DNA of 43,281 nucleotides, from the IMG/VR virus record IMGVR_UViG_3300028585_000009, positions 1 through 43,281 of that record; one strand, 5' to 3'. The notes under the pieces were generated by a model. The model worked only from the letters and a program-made list of their open reading frames with translations, ran no database searches and was not told the origin of the DNA. The position numbers and the translations under genes are program-made. Positions within the stretch are counted from its first letter, which is position 1, and each line of letters begins with the position of its first letter. Shown here one piece after another: positions 5,270 to 43,166 of this stretch. Source of the stretch: a virus (taxonomy: Duplodnaviria > Caudoviricetes).

Positions 5270-5484
5270 TGCGGTGCGACTGCCGGTGCGGTCATGGCTT
5301 CGAAGTCAGCCACGGACATGACGCCAACGGTGAGAACGATCAGCTCGCCCTCTTCCAGGCTCTGAATCTTCGATTGCTTGAGCAGGTCAGCGGCTTCCTG
5401 CACGGCGTACTGCAGCGCGTTGCCGTTGCCTGCGACTTCGCAGACCTGGCGGTCGACGGAGTAAACGAGAGCGGGTTTCTTCAT
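5266..5484 (-). CDS. Hypothetical protein
   Basis: 72 aa, GAAGG RBS, operon context. Confidence 0.7.
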   Translation of the reverse strand: MKKPALVYSVDRQVCEVAGNGNALQYAVQEAADLLKQSKIQSLEEGELIVLTVGVMSVADFEAMTAPAVAPQ

Positions 5485-5516
5485 GGGTGGTCGCCTTCAG
5501 TTCTTGGGTTGGCCGG

Positions 5517-5906
5517 TTACTGCTGGTCAGCAGCAAGCTGGCATTTCAGATGGTAACCCATCAGCGGCCAGATCTTTTGCACCGCATTCTGCCTGGCGAT
5601 ATTGCGACCGATCTCAGCGTCAAAGTTCTCAGGGCTTGCACAGGCGCTCTCGCCGGTCACGGTGAAACCGTTGCGCAGCACCAAAACGCAGAAGGTCAGC
5701 AGGTGGAGCGCATCGGGCGTAGCGCGGGAAGCAGCTGCGTTCAGCGCACCACCGGAAAAGGCTGCATCTTCCACCGCTTTGGAATCGCCCTGGCCTGCAG
5801 TGAAATAGTGCTCACTAGAGATGTTCGCCTCGACGTCATCCGGAGTGATGCGCGGAGCGGTCAGCCCCTTGCTCTGGATTTCCTGCTCAATCGCTTTGTC
5901 GTTCAT
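5517..5906 (-). CDS. Phage N4 gp49/Sf6 gp66 family protein (candidate Acb4-like nucleotide sponge)
   Basis: APRIT...LTFCVLVLRNGFTVTGESACASPENFDAEIGRNIA...IWPLMGY; start at 5906 after GAAGGTGA RBS. Confidence 0.8.
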   Translation of the reverse strand: MNDKAIEQEIQSKGLTAPRITPDDVEANISSEHYFTAGQGDSKAVEDAAFSGGALNAAASRATPDALHLLTFCVLVLRNGFTVTGESACASPENFDAEIGRNIARQNAVQKIWPLMGYHLKCQLAADQQ

Positions 5907-5960
5907 GGAATCACCTTCTCGGTTGGTGGGAACTGCGAAGGTCGTGAGCATAGTCCGCGG

Positions 5961-5992
5961 GCAAGAAAAAGCCCAGCGCGGTGGCTGGGCTC
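5961..5992 (-). terminator. Intrinsic terminator closing the structured RNA region
   Basis: GAGCCCAGC-caccgc-GCTGGGCTT followed by TTTCTT. Confidence 0.85.
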
Positions 5993-5997
5993 GTTCT

Positions 5998-6167
5998 GAT
6001 GCTGATGGCCGGTGCTGATCTCCGGCTTGCTGACCTTGTACATATCCGCCAAATACGCCCGCTACCGTTGCCGCCTAAGCGGTGTGGCTTTACATAAACT
6101 TAGTCGATTACGCTCGCCAGCTTGCGGCGACCCAACTAGCCCATCAGCCTGGGCATTCATCTGCATC
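5998..6167 (-). ncRNA. Putative structured RNA domain with kissing-loop pseudoknot
   Basis: Closing stem GAUGCAGAUG/CAUCAGCAUC; hairpins GCCC-AGGCUGAU-GGGC and GCCGG-AGAUCAGCA-CCGGC whose loops are complementary (GCUGAU/AUCAGC); terminator immediately 3'. Confidence 0.6.
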
Positions 6168-6171
6168 GGTC

Positions 6172-6316
6172 ATCACCCGGTGGCGTCTGCTGATCCCCTG
6201 CACCGTCGCGCAGTTCGGGATTTTGTCAGCGGAGGTGCGCACCCTGCTATCGCACACTGGGTGATGACCGATACAGCCTGGCATCCACCAGGTGCATCGG
6301 CCTCGTCTTTCCGAGG
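6172..6316 (-). ncRNA. Tandem hairpins upstream of the kissing-loop domain
   Basis: CCUCG-GAAAGA-CGAGG (6301-6316); hairpin 6266-6302; branched hairpin 6172-6265; alternative 22-bp stem 6161-6182/6255-6276. Confidence 0.5.
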
Positions 6317-6324
6317 TGTAACGC

Positions 6325-6366
6325 GGCGAGCAAAGACAACGAGAAGGCGACCAAGCCGGAGCAACC
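6325..6366 (-). ncRNA. Candidate multi-target anti-RBS antisense segment
   Basis: Minus strand GGUUGCUCCGGCUUGGUCGCCUUCUCGUUGUCUUUGCUCGCC is complementary to 8-17 nt just upstream of about eleven start codons in this genome. Confidence 0.45.
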
Positions 6367-6392
6367 GCGTGCCGCAGAGGTTAGGCGGGCGC

Positions 6393-6851
6393 TCAGGCAA
6401 GGTCAAGCGCTGGCTGATGCACTTCGCTGGCCTTGGCGCTCAGATCAGTCACGTTCGCCAACACACAGCCCTCTTCGGCGTAGCGCTTCGAGACGATCAG
6501 CTCGACCACCTGCACGTCGTCAACCCACACGACGCCGTTGAACGCATCACAGATCGCCTTTACGACGTTATCGATGTCCGGCTTCTTAGTCGGCCAGATT
6601 TCACCGCTAAGGCACTTCGCACGCTTACCCTTGGGGTAGCTAGCGGGTACTCCGAGATATAACTCCAGGCGCAGCTCCACGGGTCCAGAAAGCGGCTCCA
6701 TTCCACGCATCGAAGCCAGGGCCTCGTCTTTGACGTGGTTTTCGTACGATTTCGTCTTAGCAGGCGTGAACATCCGCGCATGCCCACCGATGGTGCTGAC
6801 GCGCGGCCGGCCCTTCCCGACCGGCTCGCCTGGCATGCAGATCGTGATCAT
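6393..6851 (-). CDS. rusA: RusA-family Holliday junction resolvase
   Basis: PVGKGRPR and KKPDIDNVVKAICDAFNGVVWVDDVQV; start 6851 with GGAG RBS. Confidence 0.9.
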   Translation of the reverse strand: MITICMPGEPVGKGRPRVSTIGGHARMFTPAKTKSYENHVKDEALASMRGMEPLSGPVELRLELYLGVPASYPKGKRAKCLSGEIWPTKKPDIDNVVKAICDAFNGVVWVDDVQVVELIVSKRYAEEGCVLANVTDLSAKASEVHQPALDLA

Positions 6852-9138: not shown

Positions 9139-9934
9139 TGGCTTGGTCCTTGTGGTAATTCCCTTCGAGGATCTTTTGGAAGTTGGCCGGGTTGATCAGC
9201 CAGTCCAGACAGCAACCGTTCCATGGCTTCGCTGTTCTCCCCATGAGGAAATCCGATTTGGCCACGTACTCGAAATACTTCACGAAGAAATCAGGCTCCG
9301 CGTATTTGCCCCCCCGCTTCGCGATCGAGCGTATTTTCTTCCTGCGCGCCTCGGTGATCTCCCGTGGCTGTGGAAGTGCTGGCAGCTTCTCCCGAAACGC
9401 TTCCTGGATCTTGTCGTAATCGATTCGAGGCTCTGGCTTAACGTCGCGTGGTTTGCTCGGCAAATCACATGAGCTTTTGATCTTTTCTTTATCTGTATCT
9501 GTATCTGTATCTGTTTGGTTGCCCTTTCGTTGGTACGTTCGTTCAACGTTCGTTGGAACATCCGTTGCATCGTCCGTTGAATCGTTTTCTTCAAGTGACT
9601 GTTTTGCAAGGATTCTTGCACGCGCCGAAGCCTTGCCTGCATCGCTGTTTTTCTTCTGCTTTTTGGCCACAATTTCGAGGTCAGATTCAACCCTGAAGTG
9701 AATCCATTCGGTTTTTGTGATGTGGAAAAAAGTTTTCAACACCGGCTCTATTACCTCCCACCGGTCACCCGGGAGACGAGAAATTGAGGCCAAGCGATCA
9801 GCCCGCAGTGGCTTGCCCGTCTGCCAGTAATTGAACAGCAAAAGCAGGTATGCACCGTGCTCTTCGGTCGTCAGGTGCCCGGTGTCAGCCAGATAGTCGG
9901 CAACGTACAGTTGCATGTACGGGAGCGCCGCCAT
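9131..9934 (-). CDS. Replication initiator, DUF1376/YdaU-type N-terminus
   Basis: LPYMQLYVADYLADTGHLTTEEHGAYLLLL; C-terminal DWLINPANFQKILEGNY; upstream of dnaB. Confidence 0.85.
   Translation of the reverse strand: MAALPYMQLYVADYLADTGHLTTEEHGAYLLLLFNYWQTGKPLRADRLASISRLPGDRWEVIEPVLKTFFHITKTEWIHFRVESDLEIVAKKQKKNSDAGKASARARILAKQSLEENDSTDDATDVPTNVERTYQRKGNQTDTDTDTDKEKIKSSCDLPSKPRDVKPEPRIDYDKIQEAFREKLPALPQPREITEARRKKIRSIAKRGGKYAEPDFFVKYFEYVAKSDFLMGRTAKPWNGCCLDWLINPANFQKILEGNYHKDQANA
9474..9584. other. Putative replication origin (iterons plus AT-rich tract) inside the initiator gene
   Basis: Five tandem 11-12-mers starting TYCGTT at 9526-9584, beside an AT-rich tract with ATCTGT repeats at 9474-9516. 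Confidence 0.65.
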
Positions 9935-10254: not shown

Positions 10255-10287
10255 TCGGCTCAGCCTCACCGACCAAGCGAGCAGACA

Positions 10288-10530
10288 ATGGCAACCACGC
10301 AGACGATCGAAATCGGTCGCCGCTCACTCGACATCGAGATACAGAGCGTCGACCTGGCGAAGCGCAGCATTACCTGGCGCATCGACTACGAACGCGAATA
10401 CAACGAGCACGGCAGGCTGATCTGCTGCGGCTTCCACGAACCACGGCTGGAGAAGATCACCCGCGACGATGGCGTGCTGATCGAGGCGGCACTGTGGGAC
10501 ATCATCGACCGAGAAGGAATGAGCGAATGA
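10288..10530 (+). CDS. Hypothetical early protein
   Basis: 80 aa, first gene after rightward promoter. Confidence 0.7.
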   Translation: MATTQTIEIGRRSLDIEIQSVDLAKRSITWRIDYEREYNEHGRLICCGFHEPRLEKITRDDGVLIEAALWDIIDREGMSE

Positions 10531-12043: not shown

Positions 12044-12357
12044 GCAAGCACACACCAGGGCCGTGGTCTTTTTGGTCTGGATACAACCACGTTGACAAAA
12101 TCGAGGCGCAGGTAACGGCCGAAGATGGCGACATCGTTATAGCCTCATACAACCACATGATTGCAGAGGGCGAGAACAACGCCAGATTGATCGCCGCCGC
12201 GCCTGATCTGCTGGGGTCTCTTGAGGATTGCGTTTCAGAGCTTGAGTTGTACGCGAATACTCATCACCCGAAGGGTGCAGATGGAGCCAGGGATCATATG
12301 GTGAAAATCATGCTAGCCCGATCAGCCATCGCTAAAGCCCGAGGCGAGCAACCATGA
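12040..12357 (+). CDS. Conserved phage early protein (HTPGPW...NARLIAAAPDLL)
   Basis: Characteristic motifs; ATGA overlap. Confidence 0.75.
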   Translation: MSKHTPGPWSFWSGYNHVDKIEAQVTAEDGDIVIASYNHMIAEGENNARLIAAAPDLLGSLEDCVSELELYANTHHPKGADGARDHMVKIMLARSAIAKARGEQP

Positions 12358-14344: not shown

Positions 14345-14416
14345 GCAACGCCCGCCCGGTTCGCCGGGCAACCCAATACCCTCCGCCCAAATGGGCATCG
14401 ACCAAGGAAGCAACCC

Positions 14417-15516: not shown

Positions 15517-15726
15517 ATGGAAGTCGCCAAGCCAGTCGAGAGCGCCGTAAAACCAGCCTGCTGGGTTGCGACCCGCATCCGGGACGGCGCCATGATCGGG
15601 CAGTACTTCCACCCGCGAACCTTTGCTCAGCTGAGCACCGCTGTTTACCGAATCGAGACGGCCGAGCAGTACCTGTGCCGGATCGGTGCCAGATCGCAAA
15701 GCCCAACGAGAAACCGAAATGGCTGA
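15517..15726 (+). CDS. Hypothetical protein
   Basis: 69 aa from MEVAKP, AGGAGAG upstream. Confidence 0.55.
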   Translation: MEVAKPVESAVKPACWVATRIRDGAMIGQYFHPRTFAQLSTAVYRIETAEQYLCRIGARSQSPTRNRNG

Positions 15727-15907
15727 AAACCTGCTGACCAAAAAAGAACTGGCCGAACGCCTGGGCGTCTCGACTGAACAGATCAGACTTTTGATCAAGG
15801 CAAAAAAAATCACCGGCGGCTACAAGGTCGGTGCGTTCACTAAATACATGCTGAGCGAAGTGCTTGCCCAGCTCGCTACCAAAACCAAAGAAGGCGACCA
15901 GCAATGA
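15719..15907 (+). CDS. Excisionase/AlpA-like HTH protein
   Basis: LLTKKELAERLGVSTEQIRLLIK...YKVG. Confidence 0.75.
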   Translation: MAENLLTKKELAERLGVSTEQIRLLIKAKKITGGYKVGAFTKYMLSEVLAQLATKTKEGDQQ

Positions 15908-18372: not shown

Positions 18373-18428
18373 TTCAAACCGCCGCCCGGTCGGTCACCGG
18401 GCACCCACCAAGCAACGGAGCAACACCC

Positions 18429-19325
18429 ATGAAAGCAATCCGAATCGCAACAATCCTGGCGCTTGCCTTGGCGAGCACCTACGCAGCCGCCGACCTGGAC
18501 AAGATCATTCCGGCCAGCAAGTACGACGTGAAGACGGAGCGCGACCAGCGCATCGCCGGTGACGCGCACCTGCAGGGCCAGATCAATGACCAGGGCAACC
18601 AGATCAACGCCGTGCAGAACGCTGCGCAAATCGCCAACGAGAAGGCCGACGCCGGCGCGGTGAGGATGGATGGCATCGAAGGCAGCCTGGCCAATACAGA
18701 TGATCGCTCGATCAACAACGCCGTTCGCCTGGATGGCGTGGAGTCGGTGAACACTGCCCAGGACAAGCGCCTGGACAAGACGAACCAGCGTGTTGATGCG
18801 GTGGCTTGGACTACGAACAGCAACACCACGCGCATCGGCAAGGTCGAAGGCCGCACCACTACACTCGAGGCCCGCGCGGACGATACGGATCTGGCACTGA
18901 TCGACCACGGCAACCAGCTGCAAAACCACCACGGCCAGCTACAGCAGCACGGCAGCCGACTGGATGGGCACGACCAGCAGTTCGCCAATCAGGACATGAT
19001 CAACGCCGCGGTGGGCAGCAGCCTGGCCGGCCTGTATCAGGACACGTCCGCACTTCGCAGCGAAGTACGCCAGTCGCGCCGTGACGCCAAGGAAGCACAG
19101 GAACACGCAGCCATTGCGCTGGCGGTTGCTGGTCACCAGTTCAACACGGACCGCTCGGCAGGCTTCCAGATGGCGCTTTCGGCTTCCACTGTCGGCGGCA
19201 ACCAGGGCTATGCAGTCGGTGCCGGTGGCGCGATCAACGACCAGCTGTTCGTCAACGTCGGCATCGCAACCAGCGGCAGCCAGACCGGCGGCGTGGTGAG
19301 CGGGACGTATACCTTCGGACGTTAA
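18429..19325 (+). CDS. YadA-like trimeric autotransporter
   Basis: Signal peptide MKAIRIATILALALASTYAAA, N/H-rich heptad stalk, C-terminal helix plus four amphipathic beta strands ending SGTYTFGR. Confidence 0.75.
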   Translation: MKAIRIATILALALASTYAAADLDKIIPASKYDVKTERDQRIAGDAHLQGQINDQGNQINAVQNAAQIANEKADAGAVRMDGIEGSLANTDDRSINNAVRLDGVESVNTAQDKRLDKTNQRVDAVAWTTNSNTTRIGKVEGRTTTLEARADDTDLALIDHGNQLQNHHGQLQQHGSRLDGHDQQFANQDMINAAVGSSLAGLYQDTSALRSEVRQSRRDAKEAQEHAAIALAVAGHQFNTDRSAGFQMALSASTVGGNQGYAVGAGGAINDQLFVNVGIATSGSQTGGVVSGTYTFGR

Positions 19326-21006: not shown

Positions 21007-21197
21007 TCTGCCCCATCAAACACCCGCGCCGGTTCGCCGCGCATGTGGAGCGCCAGCAGGCAACACGGGCGAAGGCCCTGTCCATTGCACTGAGCGCGCC
21101 ACAGGCCGCAAGCCGGATGGGTATCAGCACACTGCGAGCCGAGCAACTGGCGGCGCGCTACGGATTCACCTACCAACCAACGAGAAAAAGACCATGA
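21003..21197 (+). CDS. Small basic protein, possible HTH
   Basis: SAPQAASRMGISTLRAEQLAARYGF; ATGA overlaps. Confidence 0.6.
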   Translation: MICPIKHPRRFAAHVERQQATRAKALSIALSAPQAASRMGISTLRAEQLAARYGFTYQPTRKRP

Positions 21198-42837: not shown

Positions 42838-43166
42838 TGGTCACCTTTCTCGTTGAGCATGTTTTCTGTCGCCATGCGGTTGTAGTAATTGGGGAATGCG
42901 GTGCTGATCTCGGACATCAGCCTCAGACCGACCTGTCGCCGGCCCTCCGCTAGGGCCATAACAGCATGATCCTTATCGAATACGGGCGCAAAGATATTGC
43001 AGTCTTCCATGTGCATCCAGAGGAACTTGCGACCTTCTTCGGTCTTCAGCACGTTGCCGAGCAGGTCGATCCGACGTTGCTGGCGTTCCTTTGCCTCCTT
43101 CTCAGCGTTCTCGCGCTGCTCTTTCTCTTCGGCTGCCTGCTCAAACGCGCGATCTACGTCATCCAT
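42834..43166 (-). CDS. Bbp19-like protein between portal and scaffold
   Basis: VLKTEEGRKFLW...ALAEGRRQVGL. Confidence 0.75.
   Translation of the reverse strand: MDDVDRAFEQAAEEKEQRENAEKEAKERQQRRIDLLGNVLKTEEGRKFLWMHMEDCNIFAPVFDKDHAVMALAEGRRQVGLRLMSEISTAFPNYYNRMATENMLNEKGDQ

Follow-up and report, generated by a model that had tools for sequence, protein, structure and literature searches.

A non-coding segment downstream of rusA in a 43,281-nt phage genome as the candidate loop of an antisense RNA directed at the phage's own translation-initiation regions

In a complete phage record of 43,281 nt with direct terminal repeats (the window, meaning the whole stretch of DNA analysed), the 42-mer at 6325..6366 is complementary to the phage's own start regions to an extent that exceeds chance. 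It is a non-coding stretch between rusA (ending at 6393) and a gp49/66-family gene (starting at 5906). We lean towards the reading, drawn from sequence comparison and predicted structure, that the segment is the exposed loop of a minus-strand phage sRNA, which would pair with multiple ribosome-binding sites (RBSs) and repress translation of the phage's own genes. A first-pass annotation of this DNA had cited 11 such matches, all of which are present where it placed them, and had counted nine genes with an exact match of at least 9 nt, a number confirmed here (9 of 59 starts).

In its large terminase the phage shares 72% identity with Pseudomonas phage AF, 67% with UFJF_PfDIW6 and 57% with HU1. 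There is a single Cro/C1-type HTH gene (10137), opposite a divergent promoter pair, and protein scans (62 ORFs against PHROGs, 26 against Pfam and 11 against NCBIfam) turned up neither an integrase nor a second repressor nor a Q family. As many small ORFs have no family, a divergent activator is possible despite the Q-negative scan. The rusA-like Holliday junction resolvase gene (6393..6851, minus strand; phrog_140, E=2.9e-43 for 6393-6833, with an ATG start at 6851) is the final gene of the replication arm. A plus-strand ORF with the segment as its RBS was considered and rejected, because it would cross rusA antisense.

Exact k-mers shared between the segment and the start regions were counted over 59 starts, comprising 58 curated starts and one false start (15451) that had no match. 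The segment shares a 7-mer with 17 of these genes, an 8-mer with 12 and a 9-mer with 9, and all 12 matches of at least 8 nt lie within -18..-1. Genome-wide it has 21 exact non-self matches of at least 9 nt, 9 of which are immediately 5' of a start codon. No other locus among the 86,478 genomic 42-mers scores as high at k=8 or k=9, and at k=7 the segment ties the maximum; the runner-up loci reach 8 genes (k=8) and 5 genes (k=9), and genomic 42-mers average 0.29 genes at k=9. When 42-mers from actual upstream regions are scored leave-one-out, none exceeds 5 genes at k=8 or 3 at k=9. The observed counts were reached by none of 20,000 dinucleotide shuffles and by none of the 20,000 draws from each Markov model (orders 1-3) fitted to the -18..-1 regions of this phage. 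In 60 simulated genomes the genome-wide maximum was 8 at k=9 (observed 9) and 11 at k=8 (observed 12), with 0/60 attaining the observed values. The excess that the first-pass annotation had claimed thus holds against composition-matched controls. The count at k=10 is unexceptional, at 2 genes, with 688 of the 86,478 windows getting as many. Moreover, the 9 hits represent about five motif classes and are consequently not independent. The duplex-energy test was weak, the mean over the 15 best targets being equalled by 9 of 100 shuffles. The scaffold duplex was equalled by 2 of 2000.

The starts of other genomes matched the segment far less often. In five other Pseudomonas phages it matched 7 of 341 annotated starts, as opposed to 9 of 59 in the phage itself, and 23 further genomes or loci gave 0-2 starts per genome. 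One of 341 called starts matched in a 380-kb Pseudomonadaceae chromosome sample, which may not represent the true host. For unannotated genomes the starts came from our own caller, whose exact recovery of known starts ranged from 50/70 to 71/79. Ribosomal RNA was considered as a target and rejected, operon matches being at most 9 nt and at chance level. Target regions are predicted to be more open (median 0.58 vs 0.46, p=0.003). Pairing with the 16S tail is weaker at matched starts (median -4.4 vs -6.0 kcal/mol, p=0.004), although this is partly built in, because a segment match at -18..-1 displaces the canonical Shine-Dalgarno (SD) sequence. The proposal that the RNA stands in for CI/Q control is unsupported, since the targets are not significantly early (7/34 vs 2/24, p=0.28); CI-less relatives such as AF are also without a comparable loop.

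The best predicted duplex genome-wide is with the initiation region of the scaffold/protease gene (42837; 42838..42855, minus strand), which ranks 1/59. This gene belongs to phrog_458 ('protease'), and its position before the major head gene points to a scaffold role. Among the other predicted targets, exact matches reach 12 nt at the SbcC-like ATPase gene (15904; 15889..15900, plus strand) and 11 nt at the gene starting at 5484 (5488..5498, minus strand). Matches of 9 nt are found at dnaB (9138; 9140..9148, minus strand) and, on the plus strand, at the first gene of the early arm (10288; 10270..10278), an Xis-like HTH gene (15719; 15704..15712), a YadA-anchor-like gene (18429; 18416..18424) and a DUF3850/RNA-binding-domain gene (21194; 21178..21186), whilst gene 12354 (12343..12353, plus strand) has both a 9-nt and an 8-nt match. 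Matches of 8 nt are found at the gp49/66-family gene (5906; 5910..5925, minus strand), where pairing extends to 13 bp with G-U, at an FtsK-gamma-domain gene (14417; 14399..14406, plus strand) and at the second gene of the plus-strand arm (10527; 10510..10517), which was absent from the earlier list. The YadA-like membrane-anchor assignment of the early-arm gene at 18429-19325 (plus strand) is itself weak (Pfam E=3e-4, below the cut-off). In one related contig, X4, the gp49/66 gene is missing and the joint falls where the RBSs of genes 5906 and 5484 resemble each other (5496-5919); shared RBS motifs appear to double as recombination junctions.

The segment lies within what is predicted to be a structured minus-strand leader. 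A sigma-70-type promoter is predicted at 6378..6406, with TTGACC (6406-6401), a 17-nt spacer and TAACCT (6383-6378), and its -35 box is inside the 3' end of rusA. A relaxed scan of both strands of 5851-6500 found this promoter-like site and no other; a stock promoter scan scored it below threshold. Following it, predicted folds place a P1 stem whose 5' arm (6365..6371) and 3' arm (6320..6326) form 6 bp and enclose a 38-nt pyrimidine-rich loop (6327..6364), which carries the complementarity to the phage's own translation-initiation regions. Next come a conserved P2 hairpin, CCTCG-GAAAGA-CGAGG (6301..6316), which belongs to a TGACA-N4-GGAAAGAC-N4 motif, and a long hairpin cassette (6161..6299; arms 6161-6182 and 6255-6276), which separates the loop module from a tRNA-like module (6001..6164). 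The latter has a 7-bp acceptor-like stem, a D-like arm (6154-6139), a variable domain and a T-like arm (6026-6008). Its D loop could pair with its T loop through 6 complementary nt, a predicted kissing contact. An intrinsic terminator-like hairpin (5992-5969) with a T tract closes the leader (5961..5992). All of these elements are on the minus strand. The terminator is immediately followed by a -10-like hexamer (5947-5952, minus strand) that has no consensus -35. This layout recurs in AF, HU1, L289, L292, L518 and L549, and a full promoter occupies the same position in L523, L528, L547 and L552; the site is a possible activator-dependent late promoter in Q-less phages.

The minus strand of 5960-6425 folds better than 100 of 100 shuffles (z=-5.1), and the plus strand gives z=-3.9. 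When the 5' fragment with its end at 6165 is folded, the loop comes out as mostly open, with a mean unpaired probability of 0.59. When the full-length leader is folded freely the loop becomes buried (0.22 unpaired), partly against the 3' part of the tRNA-like module, and enforcing the conserved stems of the module reopens it (0.60 unpaired). The free fold is predicted at -200 kcal/mol, and enforcing the tRNA-like stems brings this to -175 kcal/mol, a penalty of 25 kcal/mol under an energy model that is unable to score the loop-loop contact. The promoter/rusA end is also complementary to the tRNA-like module at long range in two other places (6071-6088 with 6371-6388 and 6142-6154 with 6407-6419), which run in an order parallel to that of the pair formed by the loop and the T-arm. 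The sole contig from an RNA library is 153 nt long, has 0 differences and covers just 6001-6153, and contigs do not give strand or ends. One end of it falls where the acceptor-like stem of the module has its 3' end, a weak hint of a processed RNA that says nothing on the loop. RNA run X6 gave no coverage of the loop and runs X5, X7, X8 and X9 matched nowhere in 6230-6450, neither of which demonstrates absence.

The block 6268-6408 is kept in contigs from three other samples (X2, X3 and X4). X3 differs at 1 of 141 nt within this block, compared with 35 of 373 in rusA and 51 of 384 in 5786-6169, whilst in X2 and X4 the block is retained and the cassette below 6268 has been replaced. All three have a different base at 6320 that perfects P1 to 7 bp, and X4 has a 2-nt insertion at the loop edge. 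A distant homolog, L293 (rusA 54% identical), shows the same promoter spacing and compensatory changes in both P1 and P2; its loop is shorter (17 nt), with 11 nt of the core invariant, and its loop and P2 are followed by a different cassette before the terminator. More widely, leaders comprising a promoter and a loop follow the last early-arm gene in L549 (with promoter spacing equal to that of this phage), G432, L289, L292, L518, AH02 and HU1. A TGGTC(A/G)CCT-like core recurs in the leaders of G432, L289, L549 and AH02, and in G432 it is present though its complement occurs in 0 of 56 own starts. In G432, the closest relative by terminase, the leader has a tRNA-like gene ending in CCA (L517, 8840-8902) in place of the RNA cassette, and HU1 has two annotated tRNAs at the equivalent position. 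Exact loop patterns gave 20 hits in IMG/VR and 5 in GTDB, 0 of them with the context of the module, and a combined loop-plus-hairpin pattern gave 0 hits. A looser version of that pattern gave 49 loci, among which inspection found 0 rusA-linked homologs and co-occurrence was about that of chance. In 401 Pseudomonadaceae genomes there were short weak matches only (18/401 at E<=0.01) and the pattern occurred in 0/401, and nothing among GenBank phages matched across the loop module.

Co-variation between leader and targets was assessed by scoring the 50 nt after each promoter-like site against the starts of the same genome. The phage's own scaffold/protease start ranks 1/59 here, 2/69 in HU1 and 1/12 in L549. 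In HU1 the pairing comprises 11 Watson-Crick pairs whose letters differ from those of this phage, and in L549 it comprises 11 pairs, including one G-U, that span the start codon. For each of these three phages, the pairing of its leader with its own scaffold start outscores every other cell in the same row and column of a cross matrix, and 2 (this phage), 10 (HU1) and 11 (L549) of 2000 shuffles were as strong. The remaining four of the six other phages show no such scaffold match, namely G432 (rank 14/56), L289 (18/34), AH02 (25/70) and AF (64/65), for which 456, 817, 634 and 1952 of 2000 shuffles, respectively, were as strong. Over the six other phages this gives a Fisher p=0.006, which is post hoc, because the HU1 and L549 matches were spotted by eye before testing. 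Three of ten leaders have no scaffold gene within the contig. The leaders of L549 and G432 pair with the scaffold start of this phage over 11 Watson-Crick positions and less well with their own, which suggests that leader and head modules have been exchanged in mosaic fashion. Breadth was seen here alone: none of 23 other genomes or loci was a multi-target outlier (maximum 2-5 at k=9), and HU1 has 5 starts matched at 8 nt or more vs 1.6 expected. Partial co-variation of segment and RBSs in relatives was thus seen for the scaffold start, in two of six other phages, and was not seen for a wider gene set. The original proposal of a minus-strand antisense RNA on the phage's own RBSs is strengthened by the promoter, the loop structure, conservation and the partial co-variation of the scaffold start, whereas its origin solely by read-through from rusA gives way to a probable promoter of its own (6406-6378).

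We propose the following mechanism. Host RNA polymerase would start near 6372 and stop near 5965, and the resulting leader of ~410 nt would be cut at the tRNA-like module (6164), giving a 5' RNA of ~205 nt with an open loop. Overlapping seeds within the loop, aided by G-U pairs, could then recognise several non-canonical RBS types, such that the freed 5' RNA would occupy the ribosome footprint on some dozen phage mRNAs and thereby repress their translation. Accumulating RNA would damp its targets as infection proceeds. The scaffold/protease start, which looks like the ancestral target, may be the oldest, with the loop presumably lengthened in this lineage to include genes of the replication and recombination arms and accessory genes. 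The scaffolding protein of P22 is described as translationally autoregulated (10.1101/2022.12.13.520362), which gives at least one phage with control over scaffold dose. More tentatively, and with some doubt, we hypothesise that in this repressor-poor lytic phage one RNA might run a whole translational self-regulon: a scaffold derived from a tRNA cluster, carrying a loop of private RBS types that is unmasked by processing of a kissing-loop tRNA mimic, would jointly silence or dose early, replication and head-assembly genes, the loop being adjusted anew in each lineage.

Other readings of the segment deserve weight. It is unlikely, in our estimation, that a real RNA has one main target, the scaffold/protease start, the remaining matches arising from alike weak RBSs that double as recombination junctions. 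The ranks of the scaffold start in this phage, HU1 and L549 would suit a single target, as would the relatives without multi-target breadth, the X4 joint within the mutually similar RBSs of gene 5906 and gene 5484 with loss of the gp49/66 gene, and the autoregulation of P22 scaffolding described in 10.1101/2022.12.13.520362. However, the loop has 9 starts at k=9, where no real upstream 42-mer, that of the scaffold included, has more than 3 others; it deviates from the scaffold start where it fits the ATPase, 5484, 5906 and 10527 starts; and its ends beyond the scaffold-pairing part match more starts (18429 and 12354). A generic anti-SD tract shared by a family of leader RNAs, with host messages, competing phages or a protein as its target and only an incidental fit to the phage's own genes, would account for the recurrence of the core even without a complementary own start, as in G432, and for the anti-SD-like P1 loops, with modest own-genome ranks, of several members of the P2 family (five in the top 2-8%). 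It is distinctly improbable given that own starts are matched far more than those of other phages or of the host sample (which is perhaps not the host), and that the rRNA operon matches reach only 9 nt, as by chance.

The long-range fold described above raises a cis switch, in which loop positions 6344-6361 pair with the 3' part of the module (6020-6037) and control its folding or processing, the T-arm region being RBS-like. The 18-nt arms are 83% complementary, and the free full-leader fold with its long-range pairs is 25 kcal/mol more stable than the modular fold. Yet X2 and X4 retain the loop block despite a replaced downstream cassette, L293 has a different cassette, and the pairing spans only part of the loop, leaving the scaffold, Xis-like, 21194 and 12354 matches unexplained. 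We accordingly give a switch of this kind a small chance as the whole explanation, and pairing between loop and module may coexist with the anti-RBS role as a mask. Pairing across the ribosome footprint usually represses translation, and the targets are already predicted to be open, both of which argue against an activating adaptor, a phage RNA that would pair with weak RBSs and promote their translation; the weak 16S pairing of matched starts fits such an adaptor, but the difference is partly built in by match position, and we consider the idea very improbable. The first-pass annotation had offered instead a decoy on the plus strand for a protein that binds RBSs; such a decoy could be an RNA or a DNA array. 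For the plus strand of 6268-6408 the predicted fold is stronger than in shuffles (z=-3.2), and five consecutive triplets of the segment start with A. Against this, the plus strand has no promoter-like site, whereas the promoter, the orientation of the P2 family, the tRNA-like module and the terminator are all on the minus strand, so that a decoy has only the slimmest likelihood. The multi-target anti-RBS RNA remains the reading that we favour.

The locus also reveals two widespread, covarying phage RNA motifs missing from Rfam 15. The tRNA-like module occurs in an estimated ~830 IMG/VR stretches, with a variable domain of 6-166 nt, and its carriers include L062-L182 and PAJU2, AH02, P1 and ZC03 (L057-L060). 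Over 99 modules, 468 of 495 outer stem pairs are maintained, compared with 279 with shuffled partners. It is found in late leaders and tRNA clusters, and in PAJU2 it sits between Q and the lysis genes. The P2 motif occurs in an estimated ~260 IMG/VR stretches (L318-L437, L597-L645), with 10 of 10 distinct stem variants fully paired, often just 5' of tRNA genes and 3' of a variable stem-loop. At the Rfam gathering score there were 0 hits in this phage, and nothing except true tRNAs in 15 module loci and 10 P2 loci. Searching 5850-6500 up to E=10 gave seven chance-level hits, none of them C4. ARAGORN and Rfam found 0 canonical cloverleaf genes in this phage, and the module was overlooked too in 15 carrier loci. 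T4 rnaC/rnaD were considered as a source of the modules and rejected, inspection showing no tRNA-like or P2 motif. A rusA-bearing metagenome locus (L300, 7897-8194, minus strand) has an array of seven matches to the T-like-arm motif, set close together at multiples of 27 nt. A family-wide anti-RBS role for the P2 motif is unsupported: in 24 P2-bearing genomes (26 copies), chosen from 80 of 120 loci partly for pyrimidine-rich loops, the P1 region was never the top match, although several P1 loops have anti-SD-like tracts. Two AT-rich genomes among those scored have chance maxima above 9 (27 and 48), and the statistic is thus comparable only at similar GC. The best 'non-coding' window of G432 was discarded because it is actually inside the replication gene.

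Described phage antisense RNAs (c4, sar, OOP and StxS) act on one or two messages each. In c4 of P1 and P7 (Rfam C4) and sar of P22, as presented in the available part of PMC12197685, loops of structured phage RNAs pair around the RBS of a phage mRNA and block translation. The RNA predicted here would likewise be phage-encoded and structured, with a loop aimed at RBS regions, but c4 and sar act on one antirepressor message within an immunity region, whereas this RNA follows a resolvase gene and matches 9-12 unrelated starts. Moreover, there is no Rfam match to C4, the neighbours are rusA and the gp49/66-family gene, and no antirepressor family was found among 62 ORFs. In lambdoid phages the pR' leader (the lambda 6S unit) consists of a promoter ending the last early-arm gene and a short terminated leader before the late genes. 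The promoter-like site at 6406-6378 and the terminator-like hairpin at 5992-5969 resemble this unit, by sequence only, but unlike it they are accompanied by no Q homolog among the proteins scanned (PHROGs, Pfam, NCBIfam). StxS of Stx phages base-pairs with a phage-encoded transcript (PMC12197685, in the part available) and has one phage and one host target, compared with the many own starts here.

The late intergenic RNAs of virulent phages, PAK_P3 sRNA1/2, LUZ7 sRNA1-3 and T4 RNA C/D, are abundant, and some lie in tRNA regions and are processed (available portions of PMC4933390, PMC9163698 and PMC10914365). Those of PAK_P3 are described there with single 11-nt phage matches only, unlike the multi-start matches here, and no function has been assigned to the late RNAs of virulent Pseudomonas phages. 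Start-associated tags are known from cluster K mycobacteriophages, whose phage-specific SAS sequences at RBS position were proposed as sites for RNA or protein (PMC3203893, in the part available). SAS is there one 13-bp consensus with no partner RNA named, whereas the present phage has ~five motifs and a candidate partner that tiles them all; none of its real upstream regions has a 9-mer in common with more than 3 other starts, as opposed to a single consensus. If the preferred reading is true, this RNA would be a candidate for the type of partner that tags such as SAS may have. In the literature covered, which lay outside most subscription journals and the supplements of RNA-discovery studies, we found no description of a phage RNA directed at many of the phage's own genes, nor any of the P2 and tRNA-like motifs. 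One loop reading a dozen of its own starts would, if true, be a compact translational timer in a phage group in which no CI, Q or integrase was found. Moreover, the analogous leader of cultured HU1 matches that phage's own scaffold start over 11 nt, making the core claim testable in a real infection. GcvB and RybB are multi-target bacterial sRNAs with seed regions. VpdS of phage VP882 affects both phage and host mRNA levels (PMC12197685, in the part available). Unlike these RNAs, the regulon predicted here is the phage's own, and it would be read by overlapping seeds within one loop.
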